DNA from: Candidatus Obscuribacteraceae bacterium
GTDB taxonomy: Bacteria; Cyanobacteriota; Vampirovibrionia; Obscuribacterales; Obscuribacteraceae
NCBI GenBank assembly: GCA_044229845.1
Contig: JBGASG010000012.1
Span: 32,001 to 96,000, forward strand
DNA: 64,000 nucleotides
Reading direction: 5' to 3'
Shown here: one piece after another, positions 34,523 to 59,319 of the stretch
Layout: each line of letters opens with the position of its first letter
Numbering within the stretch: position 1 is the first letter of the stretch
Program-made: the position numbers and the translations under genes
The notes under the pieces: model-generated
The model's input: only the letters and a program-made list of their open reading frames with translations
What the model was told of the DNA's origin: nothing
The model's database searches: none

Positions 34523-34737
34523 AAGAAGGAACCCTACAACCTGCTAGGAATATGCTACCAAGCCCCGGGTTGAACTGGACTGGTATTTTCCCCGGATTCT
34601 GCTGGATGCGCACTGGCAAATGAGGCGTAGCACAATACTATTTGGGAACTCTTCTTTTAGGTAAAACACTGCGGAAAAGAACCAATATAGGCAGTGTTTT
34701 TAGTGTCAAATGAACCAATCCCTCTCACGGGGCGCAG

Positions 34738-40058: not shown

Positions 40059-40392
40059 CTCGATCCTGGTTCGTGCAGGGATGCATCCACCTCAAGTTAC
40101 CACAACGGCAGCCGATGCTCGCTAGGAAAAACCCGGACTGTTCCACCCGAGCAATCAGTGCCCCATGCCACTACCAGCGGTGCCAGCCCTGCAAGCGGCC
40201 AGACCTCCTCCGAAACCAAATACGGTGTCGCTCAACACAAAAATTTGCGCAGCCTGAACCCGGGCATACATGACCATCACGCCTGACAACACCCAGCCTA
40301 TCGAGCATTATCGGCTCCTCGTATGTTTTATTTGTTATGTACCGGGTATTTATCTAGCGGAAGTTGGCTACCCTGCAGCGCCAGGTCGGGCT

Positions 40393-42918: not shown

Positions 42919-43056
42919 CCGAATCCGGACGGAACGAGGATCGCAGTGCACGTGCCTCGCTTCAAGTTGACCCCTCGTATTCCCTAGGCTACAGTGGTAT
43001 TAGTCTGGAATCCGATCCCGCCTTATGCATCCTGAGTTACCTGAGAGGTTCACACC

Positions 43057-45135
43057 GTGAAGGCTCAAAAACACGTACGGGCACCCCGTGGTAATACCCT
43101 CGCGATGGTCGCCGGCGTGACGATTGTTTTGCTCATGGTCGTCGGACTGATTGTTCTCTATCTCTCGATGGTCCGTTCAGGCAGCGAACACAGGAGCGCC
43201 ATCGACTCAGCCGCGCTGGCGGCAGCCAAAGACATCTCCCGCATCGCGATTAACACGCCTGAGTTTGGTTGGGTTGCATTGACCACCGAACCACCAATCG
43301 GACGCGACACGAATGCGCCGGACCAGTGGTTTCAGGAAGTTCATAGCCTCAACGAGCTAATGGCTACCGTCCGCCTCGAGATGATCATTGCTAACGAGCT
43401 GGGCGACAACTTCATGCGCGATCTGGCTATCAGCGATTACAACGACGTAATGCAAGTCAAAGACGATTTGACGACGGAAATCAACCAGGCGCTGCCCAGT
43501 GGCGGTTCTGCGAAGGATGCCGCCGGCAACACGTTGACTCCCTATCAAAGCGCCCAGCGCGTCTATCTGATGAACCAGGCGAAACAGTCCACTTATGTAC
43601 CAGGCTCAATGACACTCACACTCGGATGCGTGCAGGGCGGACTGGAGACTGGCACGCCCGCACCCAATCCGATTGCCAAAGCAGCCGCAGGACCCTCTCA
43701 AACATCCAACCAGCGCTACATGTCCGAGACCAACATTCCTTTCGGCGGCAAAGACTTCATCTTCGGCTCGGTTGGTCGCCATGTCGGACTGGTCGAAAAG
43801 GACAAATTTGTCACCGCCATTGGTGGCTTGTCGTACCAGATGCCGGCCGTCGTAAAAGTGAGCGCGCGGCAACAATTTCAAGACCAGGGAAAAACCTGGC
43901 AGGTCAATTACGATGGCTGTGCCTGCGCGGGCAGCACCGAGCCGCCAAGACCTGCGCCCGGAGCATTGACGTTAAGCTTTCCTGATGGACCGGTCCCGGA
44001 GATCAGCAGAGCCGGCGATGTTTGGAATTGCGCGGGCGTGCAAGGCACAACAGCGAAGGTCTATCAATCTGATAACGGGGACTTCATCATTGACCGACCA
44101 GCCGCTACGCTGGCCGCATGGGGTGGAAAGCCGATTCCTTTCACAAGTCCCGCCAACCCCAGCGCGTCGGAGACCGCTCGGCTCGCCCTGTATGACTGGT
44201 TGCGCTGCGGAGGCAGCAAAGTAGACATCGACTCGGTTGTGCAACTGCAGACCCGAGCGTTGAATGCACCCTCAACGCCCCAGATTATGTGGAAGTCGGT
44301 AGACCCGGCAAACGCGATGTCCTTGATCAATTTTGGAATGGTGCCGACCGGCGTAATGCACATCTACACTTTTGATGCCAATGGCGTCATTCAATACCGC
44401 AGCGTCGACATCAAGCCCTACCCGTACACCGTGATCGGCGAAAAGCAACTATATGCGGAAACGGTTGAATCGAATCCGATCGGCAGCGCGGTGCCGCTCT
44501 GGACCCTTACCGGCATCAAGTACAAAGACATTCTGGGAAACATTCTCACAGATGGACAGATTCAAGGCACCGGCAATTACGACATGTTCGTCCGCGACTT
44601 CTCTCGCCAGCTAGGCAACATCAAAGGCGGCCAACACGGCGGCGAACGCATGGATGGCAACCCACTCGTGTCATACGCCGGCGCATACCCGATCGAGCCG
44701 CTTCGCGGCGGTAGAACGTCTCTTACCAACGACATCGCCATGGCGCCGGTACCGGATGCAGAATTTTGCACATGGTCGGGCGAGAGCAGCTCTGGTCCTT
44801 CCACCTCGTCCAGCACATCCAGCTCGTCGGTGAGCACCAGCATGACCAGCACCTCCGGCAGCAGTTCCACCACCAATAGTGGCACCACAAATACCGGTGG
44901 CGCCGGGCAGGGCGCACCAATTCCGGTGAGCCGCCAGGATGACTTCGCCTCCACCAGCACTCCGCCTCCGCCGTATATCACCTATACGCGTGGTCCCGGG
45001 GGTGGTGCCCCACGTCCCTGTTATCGAACCAACGGAGTGTCAGCCGACATTCGCTTCCGCCGCCAGGTTAAAGTGGGCCTTTTGCAATTCATGATCGGCG
45101 GTTACGAGTTCGGCTATGTGGCTGACATGCGCTGA
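43057..45135 (+). CDS. TadG-like large minor pilin/adhesin, paralog 1
   Basis: Prepilin-like RGNTL plus hydrophobic helix, then AIDSAALAAAK (Tad N-terminal motif). Confidence 0.75.
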   Translation: MKAQKHVRAPRGNTLAMVAGVTIVLLMVVGLIVLYLSMVRSGSEHRSAIDSAALAAAKDISRIAINTPEFGWVALTTEPPIGRDTNAPDQWFQEVHSLNELMATVRLEMIIANELGDNFMRDLAISDYNDVMQVKDDLTTEINQALPSGGSAKDAAGNTLTPYQSAQRVYLMNQAKQSTYVPGSMTLTLGCVQGGLETGTPAPNPIAKAAAGPSQTSNQRYMSETNIPFGGKDFIFGSVGRHVGLVEKDKFVTAIGGLSYQMPAVVKVSARQQFQDQGKTWQVNYDGCACAGSTEPPRPAPGALTLSFPDGPVPEISRAGDVWNCAGVQGTTAKVYQSDNGDFIIDRPAATLAAWGGKPIPFTSPANPSASETARLALYDWLRCGGSKVDIDSVVQLQTRALNAPSTPQIMWKSVDPANAMSLINFGMVPTGVMHIYTFDANGVIQYRSVDIKPYPYTVIGEKQLYAETVESNPIGSAVPLWTLTGIKYKDILGNILTDGQIQGTGNYDMFVRDFSRQLGNIKGGQHGGERMDGNPLVSYAGAYPIEPLRGGRTSLTNDIAMAPVPDAEFCTWSGESSSGPSTSSSTSSSSVSTSMTSTSGSSSTTNSGTTNTGGAGQGAPIPVSRQDDFASTSTPPPPYITYTRGPGGGAPRPCYRTNGVSADIRFRRQVKVGLLQFMIGGYEFGYVADMR

Positions 45136-46417: not shown

Positions 46418-48724
46418 ATGTCACCCGATCAAGCTGATCATTTACCCGCACCAACACCGACGCAACGCTTGACCGGCGACATAACCTCTTTCGGGCTACG
46501 CCCGATTCTGCAAGAGATACTGGCCTCGAACCAGCTTTCTGGCGTGCTTTTCATCCACAGCCTGGATTACCAGACCGGCACCATTCTGTTAGTGGACGGC
46601 ATAATCAGAGCTGCAGTGATTCCGGCAGCCAACGTGCGGCGCATTCCGGCGTTGCGCCAGATGCTCTCAGCAATCAGCGGCACCTATGAGTATGTACCGG
46701 ACAGCACCAGAGTCGAGTTGAAGAAACCAACCAACGTCGACCTCGCTGAGCTGCTTGCCTGGCGTTCGACTGAAACCCAGGAAACCACCCTCGGCGATTC
46801 GCTGGAAGCACTAAATACGATACCATTGAGCACGGGGGAGAAGTGGGAAAATTATATCGATAGAACCACCGACGAGCCGGGCTCCGCCAACCCGCCTGCC
46901 AGAGGCGCGGATGCACCGACCGTGAAGTCATACCTTCCCCTGGCGCCGGACGGCGACCTCTTCGGACTGCAAGAAGCGTTGCGTCAGCACGAAGCAAAAC
47001 TGGCGGCGCAGGTCTCCGACGAGGCCCTGAGCGCCGGGTTGGAACCCGAGTACAACGAAGATCCAGACGTGCCCACGCTGATCAACCTGTCCGCAATCAA
47101 AGCCATCCCGACGCCCAGCGTCACGGCTCCCGACCGCATCACTGCCAGTTATGAAATGCCGGACGGCACGGTAGTCGGCGGTTCCCCGACCGGCTCCACC
47201 GCCAGGCCCAAGCACACCTACCCGAAGTCGAATGCCATTAGATACGGTGCCTTGAGTATCGGCATCGGCTTCCTTCTCCTGGCGGCAGTGGTGATCTCGA
47301 CCGCCAAAGTTCTCGAAGAAAGCGACAGGCAGAAGACCTACGCCCGAGGCGTCCAGCTGCTTAGAGAGAGATACTACGGGCTGGCCAAACAGCGCTTCGA
47401 CAGCCTCCTCGAACACGATGCTCGCTTTGTACCGGCACTCTTGCAGCGTGCACAAGCTAACTTACTGCTCAACGATCCTCAGGCGGCCATTCGCGATTAC
47501 GACGCCGTCATACAAGCGGATGCCGGCAACGCCGAAGCTACCGACGGTCGAGCCGCCTGCTATCTAAAACTGCGCGACTATCCGAAAGCCGTAGCGCTGG
47601 CCGATGAAGCTCTGAAGGTAAAGCCCAACGACTACGCAGCGCTATTGATAAAAGCCACGGCCTATCGCGACCTCGGGGAGAACGCCCGCGCCATCTCAGT
47701 GGCCGGCGAGATCATCGCCAAGAAACCTGCTGCGCAGCTTGCTGAGGCCTACGCGGTACGGGGAGACGCCCTGTACAGGAGCGGCAAGTACAGCGAGGCG
47801 CGCGATGACTTCAACGCCGCCCTGGAAACAGATCCCAAGGCAAACGACATCTACGCAAAGCGCGCCATGGCCCTGTTGCAACTGAAGCTCTACAAAGAAA
47901 GTCTCGCCGACAGCACAGACGCCATTTTCGCCGACAACACCAATTCGGATCTGTACATGTTGCGCGGCCAGGCTTATGAAAGGCTTGGCGAGCTGGAAAA
48001 GGCTGTGGAAGACTACGAGCAAGCAGTGTCGTTCGAGCCGACGTTCGAAACCTATGCTGCACGCGCCCGTGTCGAGATGGCACTTAAACAATACAACCGC
48101 GCGGTTGCAGATTTGTCCGAGGTGGTCAAAGACACAGCCGCGCCGCCTAGTTATAAGGCTTTGCTTGCCGAAGCCAAAGAGAAGGTCAAGTCGATGCCGG
48201 TAAACGCTGTGGACATCGCGGCGCTCACCGAGAAGGATCGACCGGCCATCGTACTCAAGTATGACCAGATGGTCCGACAGGGTTTCGCGCTCACCAGACA
48301 GGGTCGAGGCATGGATGCTGCGCAGTTGCTGTCTGTAGCCGTGCAGGCTCAACCAAATGATGTGCAAGCGCGACGCTACCTGGCCCAGGCATTTGCGGTC
48401 GCGGGTCTGGGGGATCGCTCTATCGAGCAATTCAAAATCGTAGAAAGAACCAACACCCTCACGGACGAGGATCGGTTCTACTATGCGCGTGCACTGCACA
48501 ACTTGAAGCAAGATGCGCAGGTGATATCCGTCACCACCGATCTGCTGGGCAGAGACCCTCACCACGGCGAGGCGCGCTGTTTGCTGATCGAGTCGCTCTT
48601 GCGCAGCAACGACCGCGCCCGCGCTATAGAAGAATGCCGACTGGGCGCCTCCTACGCACGGACACCCCAGGACATTGCCACCTTCCAGCGCCTGTACCAG
48701 GTTTCGCAGACTTATCACCGGTGA
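46418..48724 (+). CDS. PATAN/DUF4388-like - TM - TPR protein, paralog 2
   Basis: Same architecture; DLFGLQEAL, AIFAD.N..LYMLRGQAYE and FQRLYQV shared with the paralogs. Confidence 0.85.
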   Translation: MSPDQADHLPAPTPTQRLTGDITSFGLRPILQEILASNQLSGVLFIHSLDYQTGTILLVDGIIRAAVIPAANVRRIPALRQMLSAISGTYEYVPDSTRVELKKPTNVDLAELLAWRSTETQETTLGDSLEALNTIPLSTGEKWENYIDRTTDEPGSANPPARGADAPTVKSYLPLAPDGDLFGLQEALRQHEAKLAAQVSDEALSAGLEPEYNEDPDVPTLINLSAIKAIPTPSVTAPDRITASYEMPDGTVVGGSPTGSTARPKHTYPKSNAIRYGALSIGIGFLLLAAVVISTAKVLEESDRQKTYARGVQLLRERYYGLAKQRFDSLLEHDARFVPALLQRAQANLLLNDPQAAIRDYDAVIQADAGNAEATDGRAACYLKLRDYPKAVALADEALKVKPNDYAALLIKATAYRDLGENARAISVAGEIIAKKPAAQLAEAYAVRGDALYRSGKYSEARDDFNAALETDPKANDIYAKRAMALLQLKLYKESLADSTDAIFADNTNSDLYMLRGQAYERLGELEKAVEDYEQAVSFEPTFETYAARARVEMALKQYNRAVADLSEVVKDTAAPPSYKALLAEAKEKVKSMPVNAVDIAALTEKDRPAIVLKYDQMVRQGFALTRQGRGMDAAQLLSVAVQAQPNDVQARRYLAQAFAVAGLGDRSIEQFKIVERTNTLTDEDRFYYARALHNLKQDAQVISVTTDLLGRDPHHGEARCLLIESLLRSNDRARAIEECRLGASYARTPQDIATFQRLYQVSQTYHR

Positions 48725-48743
48725 AGTCTGCGCCCTTGCAAAC

Positions 48744-48771
48744 ATTGCCGATAACAATTCTTTTCGGCAAT
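48744..48771. other. Putative tyrosine-recombinase site, left (11-6-11)
   Basis: ATTGCCGATAA-CAATTC-TTTTCGGCAAT; arms are near-perfect inverted repeats; extra half-site ATTGTCGAAAA at 48772. Confidence 0.65.
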
Positions 48772-48873
48772 ATTGTCGAAAAGAAAATCGCTAGCTTGTC
48801 GCCGAAAAGTCACAGCACAATTGATTCCAGTCCCTTTTAGATGTAAGGTACACGGGCTTTCTGGAGATAGGAC

Positions 48874-49419
48874 ATGACCCGAAATATGCTTAGCACCATG
48901 ACGACTATGGTCCTCATAACTGTGGCGGCGTTTCAAGCAGCCGGCGCAGAAAACAACAATGATTCCGAGTTGGACGGTTATTTGAAACGTCGAGCACAAA
49001 TGATGCATGTCTCACACGCTTCGGAAAGCGACTTGCCGATCAAAGAGAACAAACCTGGTGATAATCCACCGAAGATTTACCAGCTGCATAGTGCTGGGAA
49101 TGTTGAGAATACAGTGACGCTGTATATCGCAGAAAACGGTGAACCGTTACTCCGAAAACGATACGGTAGCTCCGGGATCTCCTTCGATTCCGTGTCGCAC
49201 AAGGACGCTGTGAAGCTGTGGCGGGGTAAAGGCACCTCCCAACTACGGAGCCTTTCGTTGTGGGGCTCGAACGGTATTCATGACAATGAATTCAAAATCG
49301 AGCTTCGCTTTAGGAAAGGATACTGTACTGAATATCGAGTGCAAGGCCCAGGCATCACGGACACAGAATGGAAGGGTTCACTAATGCAAAGCAGACCGGA
49401 GCCACTGACAAAAAGTTGA
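48874..49419 (+). CDS. Hypothetical exported protein
   Basis: Signal peptide ending AGA; SD-like GGAG/AGGA. Confidence 0.7.
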   Translation: MTRNMLSTMTTMVLITVAAFQAAGAENNNDSELDGYLKRRAQMMHVSHASESDLPIKENKPGDNPPKIYQLHSAGNVENTVTLYIAENGEPLLRKRYGSSGISFDSVSHKDAVKLWRGKGTSQLRSLSLWGSNGIHDNEFKIELRFRKGYCTEYRVQGPGITDTEWKGSLMQSRPEPLTKS

Positions 49420-49424
49420 AAAAG

Positions 49425-49454
49425 GCGATGAGAAGGGCTTCCCCTTCTCATCGC
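49425..49454. terminator. Terminator hairpin between convergent genes
   Basis: GCGATGAGAAGGG-CTTC-CCCTTCTCATCGC, a 13-bp perfect stem, with a T-run on the minus strand. Confidence 0.8.
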
Positions 49455-49467
49455 AAGTAGTTCAGCG

Positions 49468-51138
49468 TTAGTTCGGCGGGAAGGTGCCCGAACTAAAAGC
49501 CCCTGCCATCCAGTTGTTTTCCTGTGTCAGCAGAGACTGGACTCCTTGGACGAACGGCTCAGCCGGTCCAACGAGTTGCTTTGCAAAGGCGCGCGCAAAT
49601 GCTTCGCCTGGGACGTCGAGTTCCAGTCCTTTCTTCTGTTTTGCGATTTCCCAGTTGCTGAGTCCGGGACTCCAAGTTGAGCAGAGCTTCTGTCCAGCCG
49701 GAAGCCACTGATCAATTGCGGTGTTGCACGAGGTATTCGGCAGATTGAACTGAGTTCGATCGGCGTTAACGGCAGTAACCGCGAATGACTGCTTTTGGCT
49801 GGGATTGCTCTTGATGGCGTCGAGCTGGTGACCCAACTCGTGGTTGACTGAGTTCTGATAGAACGGTTCGCCTTGTTTGTAAATCCAGAGCCCAGTGGAT
49901 TTTTGGAGAACGTCACGGAATACAGCGGTACGTTTGTCGGACGTTTTGCTGATCCCGTAAGCGGCCAGGTCGGACCCATCTGGAGCTTTGTCGTTGTAAC
50001 CGAAGAAGTCGTTCCAGTCGCGGACATCGCGCATAATGTGAATCTGGATGTTGTTATTCTGGAAATCAGTCCGCCAGCCAGAAGGAATGTGCGAGCCGGT
50101 GGTCCTGCGAATACTGTCCAGCATGACCATCTCGGCAGAGTTTGGTTCATACGGGTGTACGCAGTTCCAGTGCTTGTTCGGCCAAAGAGTTGAGTTGTTA
50201 GTGTGGTCTTGAATCACACACAGAACCCAGACACCGTTAGTGAACTTCGACTTGGCTGCATAACGATCGGTGGCTGCGGGCGGTGTGGCATTCCAGACGT
50301 AGTACTGGATGATGCCATACGTATTCGGCATATCATCGAGCGCGCCGTTCAATGCTGCCGCCGTTGCACCAACAGAAGCTATCCTGCCAATTTGATAACC
50401 GAAGACTTCTTCGGGAGTGGCGCCGTAGACCTCGTCGAGGATACCCCAAGCATTCAGGGTAGGATATCCGTTATAGATCGTCGGCCAAACTATCGCTTTG
50501 CCTTTCGGCGGATTTTCATCCACATATGCAGCGTCGTAGTTGTATGCCGCCCTGAAGTGGTCATAGACATCTGGCACATTTGGCACGATCACTTTGGTGT
50601 AATAGATACGTCCCAGAATCTGTGCCATGTGGACGCGGAGCCCCGGGCTCGGCGTCACTGTGATCGGTTGCTCCACTCCGTTGGCATCCTTTTGCCTCAC
50701 ATGCCGAAATACAGCAGCAATTGGCGCAGTGACTGATCCGTCATCGGTTACGACGGGATCAGCGTAGGAGCCATGCGACTTTGCCGCCGGTGCAGGTGCA
50801 CCAGTAAAGGCTGCAAAGTCTGTCGCATTCTCGAAGAGATAATGCTCATAAGCTCCGACCGCTCCAGCGCGTAAATGTGCAGGCAGAGCCGCCGCCCCGT
50901 TGGTGATGTTGCGAGCATCGGTTTTGGTGGTCGTCCCACCATTCACGGTGTCATCGCAATTCCAATAGTACTGCGGCCAGTTTGTCTGCGCTTGGTATTT
51001 GTTGCAGGTGATCCCGCCTTTTGTCTCGGTATCCAGCAACGTTTGCGCATGCGCTGGTGCGGCTATCGCAAGCATCGCAAAGATGCCCATGAGTGCCATA
51101 CTGGCGAATGCCAGTAGCCTATTTGCTTTCAGTCTCAT
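49468..51138 (-). CDS. Secreted tandem zincin-like metallopeptidase (degenerate domain plus HExxH domain)
   Basis: Signal peptide ending AHA; NHELGHQLD and downstream EAFA; internal duplication. Confidence 0.75.
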   Translation of the reverse strand: MRLKANRLLAFASMALMGIFAMLAIAAPAHAQTLLDTETKGGITCNKYQAQTNWPQYYWNCDDTVNGGTTTKTDARNITNGAAALPAHLRAGAVGAYEHYLFENATDFAAFTGAPAPAAKSHGSYADPVVTDDGSVTAPIAAVFRHVRQKDANGVEQPITVTPSPGLRVHMAQILGRIYYTKVIVPNVPDVYDHFRAAYNYDAAYVDENPPKGKAIVWPTIYNGYPTLNAWGILDEVYGATPEEVFGYQIGRIASVGATAAALNGALDDMPNTYGIIQYYVWNATPPAATDRYAAKSKFTNGVWVLCVIQDHTNNSTLWPNKHWNCVHPYEPNSAEMVMLDSIRRTTGSHIPSGWRTDFQNNNIQIHIMRDVRDWNDFFGYNDKAPDGSDLAAYGISKTSDKRTAVFRDVLQKSTGLWIYKQGEPFYQNSVNHELGHQLDAIKSNPSQKQSFAVTAVNADRTQFNLPNTSCNTAIDQWLPAGQKLCSTWSPGLSNWEIAKQKKGLELDVPGEAFARAFAKQLVGPAEPFVQGVQSLLTQENNWMAGAFSSGTFPPN

Positions 51139-51665
51139 AACAGTGTTTCCTTTCGAAAGTTTGGTTTGGGTTTATCTCAGACCGTTGTTAATCCGGTCCC
51201 ACTCTGGGAGACAACTGCAATTACTTCGAGCGAATGAACGATGTTCTGTTCTTTCGGGAGTGGCGGACGGATGGGGAACGGCTAAGATGCCCTTAGCATG
51301 CAAATTCGGGACCGCAGAAAACCAGCGGCATTGCGAGTTGGTGTCGATCGCTGCGAACCCTGCGAGATGAACTTAGCGGCGCTTGCAAGGGGCAATAGCG
51401 CCGTAGTTGCAGCTGCTGAGCTTGAATAAATTGTCAACAAAACTTATGCCTCGCGCAGCATTGCGAATTCGTGGTGCCCGCATGGTGAGCCGAGCCAGCG
51501 CGAAGTGTCCTAAAAGAATTGTTTGCGATTGAAAGTCTACAGCCGGTAACGCAGCGTCTACAACGCCCATGAATAGCCAATGGACGTAACGTGATCGAAC
51601 TTCCTAACCGAGTGTGAATCAGTAAGGAATTCCTTGCACGGATTCAACGACCGCTTTCGATGCTG

Positions 51666-52376
51666 TTAGTCCTTCGCAAAGCCTTTAAAACGCGTTGGAT
51701 CGAGCTGGGTGTATAGAACCGTATGCTGGATGTTTTTGTGCCCCAAATACGCCTGTATAGCCCTCGTATCTGCGCCTTTTGCAGCGAGCGCATACCCCCT
51801 GGCGTGACGAAGCATGTGGGGGTGCACCGGAAATTTGAATCGCGCTTCTTCGCCAGCTCGCGCGACCAGGGCGTGCACGGTGCGCTCGGAGAGCGGTCCT
51901 CCGCGTTCGGAGACAAAGAGAAAGGGCGAGTCGGGATATTCGCGCTGCAGTTGTCTGAGTGCCCGTAACTCGTCGCCTTCAATCCAGTGGACGCTGGGAT
52001 CGCCGTTCTTGAGGCGATTTACGTGCAATTTGGCTGTTTTGAATTCAACCTGTTCCCATCTGAGCGCCACTATTTCGCCGACGCGAAGACCGTGGCGGTA
52101 GGCCATCATGATCAAGACCCAGTCGCGGAAGCCATGGCGGCCAATGTTGCGGGCGGCTTCTCGAAGTTTTTTGGCCTCTTCTGGCGTCAGATATTCGCGC
52201 GATCGCACGTCGACGTTGCGCGGTTTCTCCGGAGGTGAATTGGTCCGGCGACGTCGTGGGGCAGAAGCCTTCTTCTTGGCAGCCACCTTCTTAGACTTTG
52301 CCGAAAATGACTGCTGGCGAGGGGCAGAAACTTCCTTTTTTGCGACGACCTTGCGTTTTGTTGGTTGTTTAGGCAC
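51666..52376 (-). CDS. FimB/FimE-like tyrosine recombinase
   Basis: Catalytic set intact: HGLRVGE, RLKNG, HPHMLRH, LGHKNIQHT and Y; catalytic domain only, with a basic N-terminal tail. Confidence 0.93.
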   Translation of the reverse strand: MPKQPTKRKVVAKKEVSAPRQQSFSAKSKKVAAKKKASAPRRRRTNSPPEKPRNVDVRSREYLTPEEAKKLREAARNIGRHGFRDWVLIMMAYRHGLRVGEIVALRWEQVEFKTAKLHVNRLKNGDPSVHWIEGDELRALRQLQREYPDSPFLFVSERGGPLSERTVHALVARAGEEARFKFPVHPHMLRHARGYALAAKGADTRAIQAYLGHKNIQHTVLYTQLDPTRFKGFAKD

Positions 52377-52423
52377 TGGTTTGGACTCCCGTCACTTTAT
52401 GCCCGTGACGGGAGAATCATAAC

Positions 52424-52451
52424 ACTGCCTAATACGGTTCTTTTCAGCAAA
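52424..52451. other. Putative tyrosine-recombinase site, right (11-6-11)
   Basis: ACTGCCTAATA-CGGTTC-TTTTCAGCAAA; 52421-52450 matches 48741-48770 at 23 of 30 positions. Confidence 0.6.
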
Positions 52452-52610
52452 CACGTGTCGGTATTACCACCATATCTGGTGCGAAGGAACTGCCACCCGC
52501 TCCATTTGACAAGCCCGAAAACTCCTGCCGATCCCCCGGCTGAGTATTTGATAATATCGAGGGGGAAACCAAAGCGGATATTGGCGTTCTGACGCCGGGT
52601 GCGTGCTGCT

Positions 52611-54989
52611 ATGTCCTTAGAACCGCCGCCGAACAATCTTGAAAACGCGTCTGCGCAGGTGCACAAGCTGGTGGGCGACATTGATGCCCTGGGTTTGCGC
52701 GAGGCTTTCGAGAGGGTCCTGCAGGCTGAAATTCCGGTCGGCATTCTACAGGTTGCTTGCCAGAACAAGGCGGGCGCCATACTCGTCCGCGGCGGCTCGA
52801 TAAAGGCGGCTATCGCCCCTTCCTCGCAACTTCTGGGCGAGCCGGCCCTCAGGCAGATACTGAGCGCCGACGAAGGCAAGTATCGTTTCACAACGGACTT
52901 GCCCCGGGAGCCCGTCCGCGAGGTCCTGGACATAGACGTGGCTGCCCTGCTCAATTGGCGACACCCCGCCCAGCCAGATGTGGTGCCGTCGCTGGTACGA
53001 GCACTTGAGACCCTCATGTCCAGCGAATCTTATACGGTGTCGACCGACCAGCATATTCCTGTTTATGTGCCTGAGCCGGACACGGACGAGCTGATAGCTC
53101 TTTCCGATGAAGAAATGTCGGCGGCGCGAACTGCACCCGAGGATTGCTTCGGGTTGCAGGATGTACTGGCACGCTTCGAAGCGCAGAAGAAGCAGGAAGC
53201 AGAGGACCTCAGACAACTTACTAACGAGCACCTGAAAAAAATCGAGGCGCCGCCAGATCCTTCGCCCGACGATCGGCCGCTGCCCATGAACCGCTCAACC
53301 GATCAACAACGTCGGGGATCGGCAGAGCATCCAACTGACTCTCCTTACCGCATCACCGGCGGACATCGCGTCACCGGCGGACACACGACCGGTACCTACG
53401 CGCAGCTAGCGGCCGACCAAACAGCGCAGCTCCCCGCGATCTCCAGCGAGATTACCTTGCCGACCGGCGAGACCCTCAAAGAATCACGGACGAAACAGTT
53501 CAGGCAAACCTCCCTTTTCGTCGGCATCGCAACCGTGCTGATTACAGCGGCAGTAATCGCAACCAACAAAGTACTGACTGAAACCAACGCGGTGCAAGGG
53601 ATGCAGGGCGGCAATCAGTTGCTCAAAGATGGATACAAAGATCTGGCCAAAAAGAGTTTTGCCCGGGTCATCGAGAAAGATCCAAATAACGTGCCGGCAT
53701 TGCTGGGGCGCGCTGCTGCGTGTTTGCAAATGCACGATCTGCCGGCGGCGAGCGCGGACTACGCCAAGGTCTTAACCCTCGATCCCGGCAATATCGAAGC
53801 CATGAACGGGCAAGCTGGAGTTTTCGTCCAACTGAAAGACTACGCAGATGCAGTGGCAATCACCGAAAGCGCCATCAAGGCAAAACCCGACAATGCGCGG
53901 GCTTTGCTGATCCAGTCGCAGGCCTATTTGGCGATGGGAAAAAACAAACAAGCCGCTGATGCCGCCACTCGCATCATCGAGAAAAAAGCGCCCGACGTGC
54001 TGGCCGCCGCTTATGCCGCGCGCGGTGACGCGTTTCTCGCCCTGAAAAAGTTCGGCGAAGCTTACTCCGACTTCAGTCAGGCGCTGCTGGTCGATCCAGG
54101 CAATCGCGCCAACTTTGGAAAACGCGCTCAGGCTGAACTTGCACGCTACGAATACAACGCAGCGATTGCCGACGTCAACCAGGCGATTTTCGCCGATCAG
54201 TCTAATCCCACCTGGTTCATGCTGCGGGCGCAGGCACTGGCGAAAACAGATCAGCTGGACCGGGCAGTAGAAGACCTCGACAAAGCGGTAGAGTTGAAGC
54301 CCGGAATCGACACATACGGCCAGCGTGCGCGCGTGCACATGGCGATGAAAAACTACAGTCGCGCCTACGCTGATCTGTGCGAGATCTGCAAAGATCCGCG
54401 CGCACCAGTCTCGTACCAGGCACAACGCGACCAGGTGGAAGCCAAACTGAAGAAGGGACCTGTCACGAAGATTGACGTGGAGGGTTTGATCTCAACGTCG
54501 GAGCCGGCGCGCGTTCTGAAATATGATGAAATGGTGCGCGAAGGTTATGCGCGTCTCAACGCCGGAGACGCGCAGGGAGCGCTGCAATTGCTTTCGATGG
54601 TGGTAAAAACAAATCCGTCCGACCTGGAGGCACGTCGTTATCTAGCCCGTGCATACCAGAAAACAGGTCACGGGCAAGAAGCAGTCGAGCAGTTTAAGTA
54701 CGTGCAGGACGTGAAACCGCTAGACGGGCACGATACCTACTGTTACGCGCAGGCCATGTATGACCTCAGGGAGTACAACCAGGCAATCCCACTTCTCACC
54801 GCGCTCGTGGATCGCGAACCGAACTATGCCGAAGCCAGGGTGTTGCTTGTGAACTGCTTGTTGCTGGTGAACGACCAATCAACCGCCCTCGAGGTGTGTC
54901 GCGCCGGTGCATCGCGGGCGCGCACCGCACAGGAAATCGCCCGCTTTCAACAGCTCTATCGAGTCGCGCAATCGGGAGCGGGACAATGA
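52611..54989 (+). CDS. PATAN/DUF4388-like - TM - TPR protein, paralog 3
   Basis: Closest to paralog 1 (TLPTGETLK, LLKDGYKDLAKKSF); start re-placed at ATG 52611. Confidence 0.85.
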   Translation: MSLEPPPNNLENASAQVHKLVGDIDALGLREAFERVLQAEIPVGILQVACQNKAGAILVRGGSIKAAIAPSSQLLGEPALRQILSADEGKYRFTTDLPREPVREVLDIDVAALLNWRHPAQPDVVPSLVRALETLMSSESYTVSTDQHIPVYVPEPDTDELIALSDEEMSAARTAPEDCFGLQDVLARFEAQKKQEAEDLRQLTNEHLKKIEAPPDPSPDDRPLPMNRSTDQQRRGSAEHPTDSPYRITGGHRVTGGHTTGTYAQLAADQTAQLPAISSEITLPTGETLKESRTKQFRQTSLFVGIATVLITAAVIATNKVLTETNAVQGMQGGNQLLKDGYKDLAKKSFARVIEKDPNNVPALLGRAAACLQMHDLPAASADYAKVLTLDPGNIEAMNGQAGVFVQLKDYADAVAITESAIKAKPDNARALLIQSQAYLAMGKNKQAADAATRIIEKKAPDVLAAAYAARGDAFLALKKFGEAYSDFSQALLVDPGNRANFGKRAQAELARYEYNAAIADVNQAIFADQSNPTWFMLRAQALAKTDQLDRAVEDLDKAVELKPGIDTYGQRARVHMAMKNYSRAYADLCEICKDPRAPVSYQAQRDQVEAKLKKGPVTKIDVEGLISTSEPARVLKYDEMVREGYARLNAGDAQGALQLLSMVVKTNPSDLEARRYLARAYQKTGHGQEAVEQFKYVQDVKPLDGHDTYCYAQAMYDLREYNQAIPLLTALVDREPNYAEARVLLVNCLLLVNDQSTALEVCRAGASRARTAQEIARFQQLYRVAQSGAGQ

Positions 54990-55546
54990 GGCAATTAGGA
55001 AAAGCCGACCTGGCGCCGATTTGCTTCTTTCTCCTGCTTGTGGCTGTCGAAGCCGGTTTCATCGCCTACTCAAATCTGGAGAAACAACGCCTGGCACCGC
55101 AGGCGGTAGCACCGCCTGTTTCTCCCTCGCTCAAAAAATTATCCGCGCCCACCCTCACCTGCTATCGCATCGGTGCGTATGACCGCGCGCAGCCGGGTAT
55201 TCTCGCCAATATGCGCGAGGACAACTTCGAGGATTTGTCGTTCCTGGGCACCTTCTATCGAGAGTGTGGTCGCTGGTCGCAAGCCCGCAAGTATCTCGAG
55301 CGATCTCTGACGCTGGCGCAAACAAGCGGCGACCGCAAGCGGACGGTGATTGCACTCAATAATCTCGGTATGTTGAGTTGCATCGAAGGCACCACACTTT
55401 CGGGCAAAGAGCGTCAAGAAACTTTTGAAGAGTCCGAACAATATTTCCAGCGCGCGTTGCAGGAACTCAAAGAACTCAACGAACCGCAATTATCACAGAC
55501 CGTCATGAGCAACCACCGCCTTCTCCAAACCAATCGGTCGTCTTGA
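54986..55546 (+). CDS. Small membrane-anchored TPR protein
   Basis: ATG overlaps the upstream stop; TM helix, then LGTFYRE.G...A..YLE and ALNNLG. Confidence 0.7.
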   Translation: MRQLGKADLAPICFFLLLVAVEAGFIAYSNLEKQRLAPQAVAPPVSPSLKKLSAPTLTCYRIGAYDRAQPGILANMREDNFEDLSFLGTFYRECGRWSQARKYLERSLTLAQTSGDRKRTVIALNNLGMLSCIEGTTLSGKERQETFEESEQYFQRALQELKELNEPQLSQTVMSNHRLLQTNRSS

Positions 55547-56443
55547 GAAGAGGCTTCTGATGCGGTCGATGAAACGCTGAATGTCGACAGGATCGACGAA
55601 GACGACATATGCGCAGATCATCTGCGACTCGAACATCGGAATGTTCATCGACCATTCGATGCCCAGGTGGAGAAGTATGCCAGCCGCCAGAATGTAATAA
55701 CGAAATTCTTTGACCCAGATCAAAGTCCAGAGCGCAAATTCAACAACCAGCGTGCCCCAGGTCAGAAGTTTGATCAAGAACATATTATCGAACACCCAGG
55801 GTACAGGCAGTTTTTGGAAATCCAATAGACGTCCGACATAGTAGATTGCAGTGCCGTCGCACCAGGTTTCACCAGCCAGCTTGGCCAGTGAACTTTGCAA
55901 ATAGACTGTGCATAGTTGCAGTTGCAACAATCGCTGTGCCCAGATAGGACTGGTTGCCGGGGTCGACCGTCCTGATTTTTTGCGGATCAAGTTGTCCAGC
56001 GAAAGCGCATTTCCAGCCGGCGAAAGTAACAGATACACAGCGGAAAGACGCATGAACAGATCACCTGAATTGAGAATGATCAAGTTGCGATGGTGAATCG
56101 AAAATAGCGCCAGGGAAAGAACCAGCAAACTGGTGCGTGTGAAGAGTCCCAGTCCGGTTGTGATTGCCGTTATGAACAGCAGCGCAAATGCACCATAGAT
56201 CGCCCAGGGCGTATCGGGCAGCCAGGCAAACAACGAGAAGCGATCAGTGATCAGCCATTCTTTATTAGCGGCACTGGTGATCAATCCCTGAGAGCCGTAC
56301 CAGTTGGAGAGATCCGGCAGCATCAACAAGACGAAGCCCAGCACGTGCAGAGAAAACAATATGCGGTACGCTGCCATGGGCAGCGGTGAACGCTCTTCGA
56401 ACCAGAATTGATTCCACAACTCCCACAGCCGCTTCAACGTCAT
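55493..56443 (-). CDS. HTTM-domain (vitamin K-dependent carboxylase-like / SdpB-like) membrane protein
   Basis: GLFTR, RN..ILNSGD, LSLD, KL.G.TW.DGTA and LHLGI motifs. Confidence 0.85.
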   Translation of the reverse strand: MTLKRLWELWNQFWFEERSPLPMAAYRILFSLHVLGFVLLMLPDLSNWYGSQGLITSAANKEWLITDRFSLFAWLPDTPWAIYGAFALLFITAITTGLGLFTRTSLLVLSLALFSIHHRNLIILNSGDLFMRLSAVYLLLSPAGNALSLDNLIRKKSGRSTPATSPIWAQRLLQLQLCTVYLQSSLAKLAGETWCDGTAIYYVGRLLDFQKLPVPWVFDNMFLIKLLTWGTLVVEFALWTLIWVKEFRYYILAAGILLHLGIEWSMNIPMFESQMICAYVVFVDPVDIQRFIDRIRSLFSRRPIGLEKAVVAHDGL

Positions 56444-56964
56444 TTCAGATCCTCAGCGGTGACGGGATATATGAAAAACGTGCGGTTATGGAAGGCTTCC
56501 GGCAGCGGTTTGTTCAGTCCCAACTCTGGTGGTGGAATGTCTTGCCAGTGCCGCTGTAGCGACACATAGATAGGTGCGCGTGTGCGGAATCGTCGCGCAA
56601 CGAAACGTGCCGCGTCCGCCCAAAGCATACGACTGCTGTCATAGTAGAGATTGTCGAGCCCATACTTACGGTAGCGCTCTTGCTGCGGTCTTTGCCAGAC
56701 TGGCAGTTTGTCGTTGCGGGGAAATTCATAATATTGCATGGACCCATCGGCGAAGGTAACGACTGCCGACACGTACATGTTGTTGAGCCGCGGATCGGGC
56801 GAGAACACTGCAAAATTTTGCCAGAGTCCGCTCCAGAGGAGTCCAGGCTTGAGCGGCTCATTGAGACGATTTCGAAGCGGCATGTTGGGGAGCATCCAGA
56901 TGGCGTTGACGCCTGCATAGATCAGGATGCCCAGAGTAATAAAGATCCTGGTTGGTAGATTCAT
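56440..56964 (-). CDS. HTTM partner protein (SdpA-like)
   Basis: GLWQNFAVFSPDP motif; 4-bp overlap with the HTTM gene. Confidence 0.7.
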   Translation of the reverse strand: MNLPTRIFITLGILIYAGVNAIWMLPNMPLRNRLNEPLKPGLLWSGLWQNFAVFSPDPRLNNMYVSAVVTFADGSMQYYEFPRNDKLPVWQRPQQERYRKYGLDNLYYDSSRMLWADAARFVARRFRTRAPIYVSLQRHWQDIPPPELGLNKPLPEAFHNRTFFIYPVTAEDLK

Positions 56965-57049
56965 CGTTCCGAAATCCGAATGCCAAACACATTCAGTGTT
57001 TCACTTACAGCATCTGTTCAATAGTGTATTCGATCTGCGATTTGTGGTG

Positions 57050-57113
57050 GCAACAAATCCAACAAATTCTGTTGGATTTGTTGCAACAGTGTTTCCAACA
57101 GAATTTGTTGGAA
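57050..57113. repeat. Palindromic operator-like array; 19-bp site present twice in inverted orientation
   Basis: TCCAACAAATTCTGTTGGA (57058-57076) and its exact reverse complement (57094-57112); the first extends to a 15-bp perfect inverted repeat. Confidence 0.9.
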
Positions 57114-57207
57114 TGCAGTATCCAAGCCACTTGACGGGGATTGTGCATTGGCATAGGCTGGATGAGTAAACGCAGTTTAATAGAGTTATATGGGATCCTG
57201 CGTACCT

Positions 57208-59319
57208 ATGACGAAGTGTCCACAACCGAGGCCACAGCGTGGCAACACGTTGGCCATGATAGCGGCTCTCACAATTTTGTTTTTGCTGGTGGCACTCTTC
57301 GTGATGCTCTATCTGATGATGGTGCGCTCCAGCGACGAGCATCGCACCGCGATTGACTCAGCCGCCCTGGCGGCTGCCAAAGACGTTTCGCGCATTGTCA
57401 TAAACACCGATCAATTCGGCTACGTGGGATTGACCAGCTCGCCGCCGACGGGCACTGATACCAACGCCGGCGACAATTACTTCCAGGAAGTGCATGGCAT
57501 CAACGAACTGACTGCTACTGCGCGAGTCGATATGATCGTCGCCAATGAAATCGGCGACACGTTTCTGCGCGGACTGGCGCAGAGCGAACTGGACAATGTC
57601 AAAGCAGTAAAGGACCAGCTGACTACGGAGATCAATGGTGCGCTCCTGCCGGCAGGCACAGCCAAAGACGCGGCCGGGCAAACACTTACGCCTTATCTGA
57701 GCGCCGAACGTGTTTATCTAAAAAACCAGGCGAAGAACTCAATCTATGTTGGGGGTTCGATGCGGCTTACGTTTGGGGGCATCGAAGGCGGCATCGAAAC
57801 GGCTACTCCCGCCCCGACTCCACTCTCCAAGGGCGCCTGCACCGGCATGGAATCAAACGGCAAATACCTTTCCGATATGAACGTTCCATTCAATGGCGTC
57901 GATTTCGTTTTCGGCTCCGTAGCACGACGAGTCGGCCTCTGCGATAAGAACAAATTCCGCGCCTCCGTGCCCGGCTTGCCTTACCAGAACCCAGGCGTGG
58001 TGCTGGTGGAAGCTCAGCAGAGGTTTCAAGAGCAGGGCAGATCATGGAACATAGCATATGCCGGCTGCGCTTGCGCGGGCGGCACCGAATCACCGCGCCC
58101 CGCCCCTGGTGCCTTCACGATCAGTTTTCCGGATGGACCGATGCCCGAATTCACCTGCCCGTGCGACATCTGGGGCGCCGCGCTGATCCAGGGCAAGACC
58201 ATGGATGTATATCAAGCCGCGGCAGCCGATTTCATCAATCAAAAGCCACCGGCGCGTCTCGACACCTGGAGCGGCGCACTGCCCGTGGCGATGCCCGCGC
58301 AGGCTACGGAAGTGACGAAACTGGCTTTCTATGACTGGCTGCGCTGCGGCGGATCGCGCATCAACATCGACTCTGTAGTCGGCATGCAGTCGATGGGATT
58401 TAATGCGCCTTCGACTCCGAAAATCATGTGGAAAGCCACCGACCCCGCCAACGCACCGGCCGTGCAAAACCTGGGACTGGTACCCACCGGCGTCATTCAC
58501 ATCTACACATTCCTTCCCGATGGTACGGTGCGATATATATCGAAAGACGTGAAGCCCTATCCCTACACAGTAGTCGGCGAAAACCAGCTCTATGCCGAGA
58601 TGCAAGACGGCAACGAACTGATCAGTGCCGCGTTGCCGTTTACGCTCTCCGGCGTCCGCTACCTGACCGACGCCGCCGGCGTGAAGGTGGGCGACATCCA
58701 GTTCACCCCCAACTACGATCTATACGTCAGAGATCTGACGCGCCGCTGGGGCACCATATCCGGTGGCCAGCATGGCGGCGAGCGCATGGACGGCAACCCT
58801 AACTTGTCTTTGCACTCACTGACGGCGCCGGGCGCAGTCGAGCTTCTGCCCGCCGAAAAACTGATCGCCAGATCGGCCGCCGGTCAGCACGTCGGCGCAT
58901 CTCAGAGCGCCGGCAACCCGGACCTGATTGCTTGCTTACCGGAAGATGACGCTCCTTATATGCAAACAGAACGCGGCGAATCAGGCTTGCTCTCCGGTGT
59001 GATCAGCGTCGCCACAGGCATAGTCAGCGGTCTTCTCAGTGGACCAAGTTCCACCAACGGCACATCGACAGGCACACCGGGGCGTGGCGCTCCCAATCCG
59101 GTCAGCCGCCAGGACGACTTTGCCTCGTCGTCTGTACCGACCCCGCCGTATTACACCTACAGTCAGGGTCCCGCAGGCGGAGCCACGCGTCCTGCCTACC
59201 AGACCAATGGTCTGTGCTGTGACATTCGCTTTCGCCGCCAGCTGAAAGTGGGAGATATGATGTTCGGCTTGGGCGGCTATAACGTCGGCTACGTAGGCGA
59301 GATGCTGGAGATTCCTTAA
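57208..59319 (+). CDS. TadG-like large minor pilin/adhesin, paralog 2
   Basis: RGNTLAM, AIDSAALAAAKD, YDWLRCGG, GGQHGGERMDGNP and DIRFRRQ shared with paralog 1. Confidence 0.78.
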   Translation: MTKCPQPRPQRGNTLAMIAALTILFLLVALFVMLYLMMVRSSDEHRTAIDSAALAAAKDVSRIVINTDQFGYVGLTSSPPTGTDTNAGDNYFQEVHGINELTATARVDMIVANEIGDTFLRGLAQSELDNVKAVKDQLTTEINGALLPAGTAKDAAGQTLTPYLSAERVYLKNQAKNSIYVGGSMRLTFGGIEGGIETATPAPTPLSKGACTGMESNGKYLSDMNVPFNGVDFVFGSVARRVGLCDKNKFRASVPGLPYQNPGVVLVEAQQRFQEQGRSWNIAYAGCACAGGTESPRPAPGAFTISFPDGPMPEFTCPCDIWGAALIQGKTMDVYQAAAADFINQKPPARLDTWSGALPVAMPAQATEVTKLAFYDWLRCGGSRINIDSVVGMQSMGFNAPSTPKIMWKATDPANAPAVQNLGLVPTGVIHIYTFLPDGTVRYISKDVKPYPYTVVGENQLYAEMQDGNELISAALPFTLSGVRYLTDAAGVKVGDIQFTPNYDLYVRDLTRRWGTISGGQHGGERMDGNPNLSLHSLTAPGAVELLPAEKLIARSAAGQHVGASQSAGNPDLIACLPEDDAPYMQTERGESGLLSGVISVATGIVSGLLSGPSSTNGTSTGTPGRGAPNPVSRQDDFASSSVPTPPYYTYSQGPAGGATRPAYQTNGLCCDIRFRRQLKVGDMMFGLGGYNVGYVGEMLEIP

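Follow-up and report, generated by a model that had tools for sequence, protein, structure and literature searches.

The locus and its recombinase

The window analysed here is a 64,000-nucleotide stretch of the genome of a Candidatus Obscuribacteraceae bacterium (contig JBGASG010000012.1, positions 32,001 to 96,000). Between two genes for tetratricopeptide repeat (TPR) proteins it carries a small module, in which two cargo genes and a tyrosine recombinase gene lie between two short two-arm sites (Table 1). A previous reading of the letters alone (the sequence-only reading) had described the module as a mini-island bounded by Xer-like sites of 11-6-11 architecture, with a FimB-like recombinase as its integrase or excisionase. 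We refer to the genome carrying the window as G000, and to a same-genus genome that was compared throughout as G001.

Both 28-mers quoted for the sites were found, in direct orientation, at 48744-48771 and 52424-52451. Site 1 lies 19 bases past the TPR-2 stop (48724) and site 2 lies 47 bases before the GTG start of the recombinase (52376), and the three genes said to be enclosed are there, one on the forward and two on the reverse strand. The claimed 23/30 match between the sites holds for a 30-mer shifted three bases to the left, while the quoted 28-mers agree at 20/28. The 11-6-11 architecture had to be corrected, as the family consensus has 13-base arms and a 6-base spacer, and the extra half-sites suggested at 48772 and about 48798 were not conserved in G001. 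The sites do resemble Xer sites, but the likeness ends there, since the genome has separate XerC and XerD homologues.

The recombinase gene is single-copy in the genome and its product is 92% identical in G001. The R-K-H-R-H-Y catalytic set of tyrosine recombinases (R98, K123, H187, R190, H213 and Y222) was invariant across 22 aligned homologues. In the predicted structure the catalytic domain was confident and residues 1-44 had low confidence (the alignment being covered there by only two sequences). A fold search matched the catalytic domain to XerA (E 4.6e-12), so that the catalytic fold accompanies the catalytic residues, and the model contained no core-binding domain. From the invariant residues, the structure model and the fold search, the protein is predicted to be, as had been proposed, a catalytic-domain-only recombinase; its active site is intact. 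FimB and FimE also have no core-binding domain, and the label FimB-like holds as far as architecture goes. It does not hold further: the best NCBIfam matches were two models of FimB/FimE-type invertases, whose cut-offs of 222 and 221 bits the protein misses with 143.8 and 142.2, and what is documented around the family is transposon resolution and arrays of modules rather than promoter inversion. The protein is not an IntI either (model TIGR02249, 50 bits against a cut-off of 265). The XerC- and XerD-like genes, named by sequence reading, lie apart on contig C1. The distribution of the recombinase is patchy (49 of 107 genomes); in a quick tree the protein falls in a clade of 34 rows (support 99), most of them from the same family or from Melainabacteria, and among the best 80 of 313 confirmed homologous stretches, which are the homologous loci used below, the nearest named ones were from Obscuribacterales.

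Table 1. Features of the module, its flanks and the third site (positions in the window)
Feature	Position	Strand	Description
Site 1	48742..48773		13-6-13 recombinase core site, left border of the module; top family-matrix score genome-wide
Site 2	52422..52453		13-6-13 core site in res-like position upstream of the recombinase, right border of the module; genome rank 5
Site 3	34666..34697		Core site inverted relative to sites 1 and 2, edge of another variable block; genome rank 2
Tyrosine recombinase, 236 aa	51666..52376	-	Basic unstructured N-terminal tail and catalytic domain (PF00589), without core-binding domain
Accessory half-site	52295..52307	-	Direct repeat of the inner arm of the core, inside the 5' end of the recombinase gene; kept in G001
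Cargo A, 181 aa	48874..49419	+	Hydrophobic N-terminus, signal peptide read by eye
Hairpin, 13-bp	49425..49454	-	Terminator-like, between the convergent cargo genes
Cargo B, 556 aa	49468..51138	-	Signal-peptide-like N-terminus, HExxH at 433-437
TPR-2	46418..48724	+	Host flank; 98% identical in G001
TPR-3	52599..54989	+	Host flank; syntenic in G001
Site-3 gene, 197 aa	33929..34522	-	Exported-type; moves with the left arm of site 3; 84% match at G001 contig C9, ending at the arm

A scoring matrix was built from the 56 sites that precede homologous recombinase genes in other genomes, with the window excluded. When the 5.16 Mb genome was scanned with it, all three sites of Table 1 came among the first five matches, beyond chance expectation. 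Five matches exceeded 15 bits, compared with none under a Markov null, and three of five random points would fall within 17.8 kb with p=0.0004. The earlier note had missed site 3, which was also recovered by a mismatch scan of the whole genome as a third relative of the sites, 14 kb upstream on the other strand (34668-34695). A pattern derived from the sites recovered the same three and no others in G001, with zero control matches. Site 1 is a near-perfect palindrome (arms matching at 10/11), and the arms of site 2 match at 6/11. The spacers of sites 1 and 2 agree at 4/6, and each is 6/6 identical between G000 and G001; those of sites 2 and 3 agree at 5/6 in G000 and at 4/6 in G001. A weak orientation caller placed site 3 opposite to sites 1 and 2. 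The association of site and gene across homologous loci leads us to predict that sites 1 and 2 are real targets of the adjacent small recombinase family.

A 13-bit match at 50699 was discarded, being inside cargo B and missing from the G001 scan. The third-ranked match (contig C3:161371) belongs to another palindrome, a perfect one, situated 2 kb away from the point where the cumulative GC skew of that contig peaks. A 10-bp inverted repeat (52387-52415) in the interval from site 2 to the start of the recombinase gene is present in G000 but not in G001. No sigma-70-like promoter was found in 48600-52700.

The enzyme and its site in transposons of other phyla

Of the 80 homologous loci, which span several phyla, 56 have a palindrome with symmetric arms 100-190 bases ahead of the catalytic domain, and the sequence of this site shifts with the recombinase clade. 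At 49 of these 56 loci a copy of the inner arm, the accessory half-site, lies 76-78 bases downstream of the core arm. The half-site resembles the arm of its own locus more than those of other loci (9.86 versus 8.14 of 13 positions over 44 distinct pairs; 0/5000 shuffles), although shared descent contributes to this. Only 9 of 113 distinct sites above 15 bits fall in long open reading frames (ORFs), though ORFs make up 71% of the DNA (many of these loci were fetched for having a site). The layout of a Tn3-type res, a core with an accessory direct repeat upstream of the gene, is also seen in the window; its half-site is 127 bases from the core arm (124 in G001) and not 77-78.

When the nearest upstream ORF was scanned, which could be done at 73 of the 80 loci, it belonged to Tn3 transposase families at 20 and carried a Mu/TniA-type integrase core at 4. 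Terminal inverted repeats (33-38 of 38) enclose the transposase, the site and the recombinase gene at 6 of 11 Tn3 loci tested, one of the six having a 5-base target duplication; none were found at the other five. From this arrangement, the same catalytic-domain-only enzyme and site are predicted to be the resolution module of complete Tn3 transposons in other phyla. In the quick tree the Tn3-linked rows are outside the clade of the window's protein and the TniA-linked rows inside it. The window module itself has no transposase or terminal repeat. Pairwise breakpoints running from the outer edge of the site to the recombinase stop were not counted as crossovers, because conservation alone explains them.

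Mu/TniA-type transposase genes adjoin the family recombinase at loci L166, L171, L008, L014, L020 and L023, and L166 and L171 have a second small tyrosine recombinase in the same block; the TniA-linked loci may be elements of the Tn5053 kind that use a tyrosine resolvase. In viral contigs the family was found at 10 loci, none with an array, and phage records gave one 41% match. No account of this site, of the family as a Tn3 resolvase or of arrays of such sites was found in the literature searched, which was mostly open-access full text; ISfinder and TnCentral lay outside this search and may catalogue the resolvase role. The 'Simple YRs' section of PMC8138268 names no catalytic-domain-only subgroup.

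The sites are borders of strain-variable DNA

G001 is 96% identical to G000 over 14 kb and has the same TPR-2/TPR-3 layout. Outside each site 60/60 bases are identical, while inside only 16/60 (site 1) and 27/45 (site 2) are. Site 1 itself is identical at 31/32 positions; in site 2 the outer arm and spacer are identical, and the inner arm differs at two bases. The cargo alleles are 30% (A, over 89 aa) and 36% (B) identical, compared with the 96% DNA identity of the flanks. The sites are, as the bounded island of the earlier note had implied, the exact borders of the DNA that varies between these two strains. The accessory genes are parted by short two-arm sites and differ in content between relatives, as in the pdif modules discussed below. 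Directly inside site 1, G001 has a run of about 24 A (L097:6041-6064), where G000 has mixed sequence.

Synteny between G000 and G001 also begins exactly at site 3, where we observed a shuffling of arms. At this site G001 retains the right arm and the host gene, and has a different left arm with 9.7 kb of other cargo. The site-3 gene of the window is found in G001 on contig C9, together with its promoter and a 13/13 identical left arm. There the left arm is joined to a different spacer and right arm, and then to genes that in G000 sit on contig C19 and have no site. The arms of site 3 thus stay with their own flanks when they move, which is what crossover in the spacer would produce.

In the G001 block at site 3 (L096:3791-8125), a 1444-aa protein is encoded that is similar to cargo B at its C-terminus (25% over 214 aa, E 8e-5), so that related cargo recurs in site-bounded blocks. 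The two variable blocks of G001 also share a 146-bp segment at 90% (L250 and L096:3105-3246), which is not in G000.

Site arrays in related genomes

Among 104 same-family genomes, two site-pattern searches gave matches in 39 and 44; the pattern was itself drawn from sites next to the gene, and related genomes in these counts are not independent. The recombinase was present at E<=1e-40 in 30 of the 39 site-bearing genomes and in 48 genomes in all. G036, whose recombinase is the nearest to the window pair on the tree, has a 4.6-kb contig with four sites and one gene between each pair (two TPR proteins and one ankyrin protein). The first two stop codons in this array are 6-12 bases before the next site, and the contig ends with a half-site and the first recombinase codons. 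A second contig of this genome reads Tn3 transposase, site, 188-aa gene, site, and has the same end. In G040, four sites beside a cut-off recombinase start part umuDC, a 120-aa gene and a gene pair, and the first of these sites has the inner arm and four spacer bases in common with site 2 of the window. The caller used above gave the same facing for four of four sites in G040 and three of four in G036, and neighbouring sites in the arrays also have unlike spacers. In G061, two sites flank the recombinase alone.

Other occurrences were less regular. G010 has six site-like matches in about 150 kb, one pair of them around a housekeeping-type operon. A second cluster of sites in G040 (L201:3970-8600) has a different arm type and lies beside a recombinase of about 194 aa that is 27% identical to that of the window. 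An element shared by G014 and G093 (L190, L191) was dismissed, as the 20-kb stretches are 100% identical throughout and hence not independent; this identity between genomes filed under different genera is probably a binning overlap.

We considered whether the sites are dif-like and worked by the host XerC and XerD, as true pdif modules or integrative mobile elements exploiting Xer (IMEX), the small recombinase being a passenger or accessory binder. The genome does have both Xer homologues, the arms resemble the difSL arms quoted in PMC5357621, and in G017, a 98% complete genome, a site-gene-site unit occurs with only Xer-like matches and no family recombinase. However, the site stands upstream of this recombinase in several phyla and varies with its clade, and its arms are symmetric, as for one enzyme. 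Unlike a chromosomal dif, which is found as one terminus site in nearly all genomes, it had no match in 65 of the 104 family genomes (two of them single-contig), and on this contig the cumulative GC skew does not change direction. XerS/difSL and XerH/difH also pair a single recombinase gene with its own adjacent site of similar arm sequence, but these are chromosome-dimer resolvases of about 355 aa acting at one site (PMC5357621), whereas the present gene is patchy and coexists with XerC/XerD homologues. We regard operation by the host Xer enzymes as highly improbable.

A different explanation is that the sites are relics, that is, remnants of res modules kept as binding sites or terminators, with the cargo alleles swapped only by homologous recombination in the flanks. 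This would suit the drifted accessory spacing, the mosaic divergence inside the module, the lack of a transposase or terminal repeat at the locus, and the many lone sites observed between convergent genes (L183, L192, L194-L196, L202-L205). It does not sit well with a recombinase that is intact and well conserved in G001, with a site-3 gene moved to another contig with its break at the arm-spacer border, or with the regular arrays in relatives, and we consider it decidedly unlikely.

Empty sites, circles and inversions

According to the sequence-only reading, the recombinase would be the integrase or excisionase of a small cargo element, that is, a circle with cargo, recombinase and one site that entered between TPR-2 and TPR-3, can excise, and tolerates mismatched spacers. 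An empty TPR2-TPR3 junction was not found in 31 genomes, of which only G001 has the orthologous locus, and there it is occupied. Metagenome contigs gave no empty junction either, in a TPR-2 protein scan or a search with a 21-base junction pattern. Contigs from 4 of 24 listed sequencing runs, one of them a possible source of this DNA, were also compared with the locus and showed at least 15 joints. The circle joint 48771-52424 was not among the 15 listed; contigs drop rare forms, so absent joints leave room for excision. Runs X18 and X20, where only 60-70% of the words were present, were rejected as empty sites, since all 30 bins were covered at low depth.

One contig of run X12 has other DNA before 48740, with 48771 joined to 51435 (depth 46, short side of 30 letters, likeness cut-off 88). 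It hints that a related element, perhaps from a different organism, has a site shortly after the recombinase.

The sites, the enzyme and the borders of this earlier proposal stand, and an integrative element would also account for direct repeats around the enzyme, a lower GC inside the module (0.526, against 0.576 and 0.550 in the flanks), the lone recombinase between sites in G061, the X12 contig with its site-1-like stretch in another upstream context, and unlike spacers between neighbouring array sites. Simple integration or excision of a 3.7-kb circle was not supported: besides the absent junction and joint, the spacers agree at only 4/6, and the same two spacers hold different contents in the two genomes, which fits replacement better. 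Recombining sites of dif modules had identical or one-off spacers (PMC13141974), and tyrosine recombinases check spacer homology during strand exchange (PMC2847244). We therefore consider an integrating and excising circle unlikely.

A FimB/FimE-like invertase flipping the 17.7 kb that separate site 2 from the inverted site 3 was also weighed. FimB/FimE-type models gave the best NCBIfam matches, small tyrosine recombinases of this kind include FimB, FimE, FimX, IpuA and IpuB (PMC6083910), and sites 2 and 3 are inverted with closely matching spacers in G000. But FimB-type invertases use inverted repeats of 7-16 bp around a small promoter switch (PMC6083910), whereas here direct repeats bound genes, no such switch lies beside the gene, and the only inverted partner is 17.7 kb off. 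G000 and G001 have the same orientation, the spacer match falls to 4/6 in G001, and no strand-changing joint was among the 15 listed for the contigs of the 4 runs. An invertase is therefore very unlikely, though inversion between sites 2 and 3 could occur as a side reaction.

Cargo and neighbouring genes

Cargo A had no Pfam or NCBIfam match and was found in 2 of 107 genomes of the order. Relatives of cargo B were found in 16 of the 107, and six more alleles (30-82%) in other assemblies. The HExxH motif was missing from one of eight aligned relatives. A fold search gave a weak match to Pro-Pro endopeptidases (best E 0.008), a structure-atlas match remained below the recognition threshold, and a sequence search found no solved relative; cargo B is possibly a secreted zinc peptidase. 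At 18 loci with cargo B relatives no site was found within 1.5 kb, except one 9-bit match.

The non-coding stretch from the recombinase to cargo B (51096-51580) has blocks up to 97% conserved in G001, and from 51435 also in X12 contigs; no match to them was found in the other loci compared. The flanking TPR genes are part of a set of three paralogous membrane-anchored TPR genes (40270-45135, 46418-48724 and within 52599-59319), with a fourth further along the contig. Two of them are followed by paralogous TadE/G-like genes, and close orthologues were found only in G001.

A proposed module-exchange system with its own enzyme

Among the closest known systems are the dif modules of Acinetobacter Rep_3/OrfX plasmids, where two-arm sites with a 6-bp spacer part single-gene modules, and the spacer on each side is kept (PMC13141974). 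Single modules replace one another there, with near-identical spacers on each side, by way of a cointegrate that arises at one pair of sites and is resolved at the second pair (PMC13141974). G000 and G001 show this signature of module replacement, with the same spacer on each side in both genomes and different contents between them, and we therefore favour exchange over excision. The pdif sites have distinct XerC and XerD arms in alternating orientation, use host enzymes and reside on plasmids (PMC13141974). Here the arms are symmetric, the arrays same-facing (by the weak caller), the enzyme is encoded beside the array, and the window module is chromosomal. The TnpI/IRS system of Tn4430 and Tn5401, both of the Tn3 family, likewise has an inverted core and a directly repeated accessory site upstream of a tyrosine recombinase (PMC2847244, PMC7157771). 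In place of its DR1-DR2, the present family has one half-site 77-78 bp away, a mostly divergent transposase and a catalytic-domain-only enzyme of about 185 aa, and the window has no transposase and two or more cores. PMC7157771 lists three resolvase types, with only three TnpI carriers among 190 elements, and describes passenger exchange by crossover at res. Like integrons, the system has a recombinase beside a same-facing array of sites, often a few bases past the stop of a cassette. It differs from integrons in that there is no IntI, the sites observed are 32-bp duplex palindromes, unlike attC hairpins, and cassette genes face either way.

We judge it somewhat better than an even bet that the locus is a pdif-like module-exchange system with its own resolvase-derived enzyme, in which cargo is swapped by two crossovers and not by excision of a circle. 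The starting point would be a Tn3-type resolution pair of enzyme and 13-6-13 site, as in other lineages. Extra copies of the site would have built up in the present lineage, most likely Obscuribacterales, and split accessory DNA into modules, either single or in same-facing arrays. Incoming DNA with a matching site would cross over at one border of a module, and a second crossover at the other border, either site-specific or homologous in shared inner sequence, would release the old allele. Because the spacers of sites 1 and 2 differ, the module would be less readily lost as a circle. The displacement of the accessory site may have freed the system from a limitation to resolution only, given that TnpI shows relaxed recombination once its accessory repeats are missing (PMC2847244). 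We infer that this enzyme does the cutting, that replacement takes the two-crossover route and that exchange is ongoing.

Several observations weigh against this model of exchange. Only two assembled genomes carry the locus, and the inside of the module has diverged in a mosaic fashion (59-97% per 100 bp), so homologous recombination contributed. The blocks at site 3 have a site at one end only, and the C9 copy has a spacer of 5 bases, unlike that of the window, which strict spacer matching leaves unexplained. The orientation caller was correct for 35 of 49 held-out sites. Arrays are a minority: a second site lay within the fetched flank at 3 of 80 loci, and 15 genomes from other lineages showed no array. 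The connection of array and recombinase in G036 and G040 runs across a contig end, and the cassettes of these two genomes were not found in a second site-bounded context among the 104 genomes (only umuDC relatives were). Nine of the 39 site-bearing genomes have no full match to the recombinase, and the unit in G017 stands in a nearly complete genome without it.

Beyond the locus, we put forward a wider proposal, which we hold at slightly less than even confidence. Recombinases of about 185 aa with only a catalytic domain would be an overlooked type of Tn3 resolvase, turned in Obscuribacterales into a self-contained, integron-like module system. The unlike spacers would give it a natural form of recombinase-mediated cassette exchange, with the window as one module that has its own enzyme.

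Our results suggest that a minimal enzyme related to resolvases has been put to new use, in this bacterium and in related ones, for shuffling genes. The dif-module system run by host XerC/XerD is described as found only in Acinetobacter (PMC13141974). A second, parallel system that encodes its own enzyme, apparently derived from a transposon resolvase, would make it possible to trace how a res site became a cassette array, and would thereby give a testable model for the origin of integron-like platforms. The family also supplies dozens of natural enzyme-site pairs without a core-binding domain, with sites that vary by clade, for the study of DNA recognition by minimal enzymes and for very small Cre/lox-like tools with orthogonal sites.

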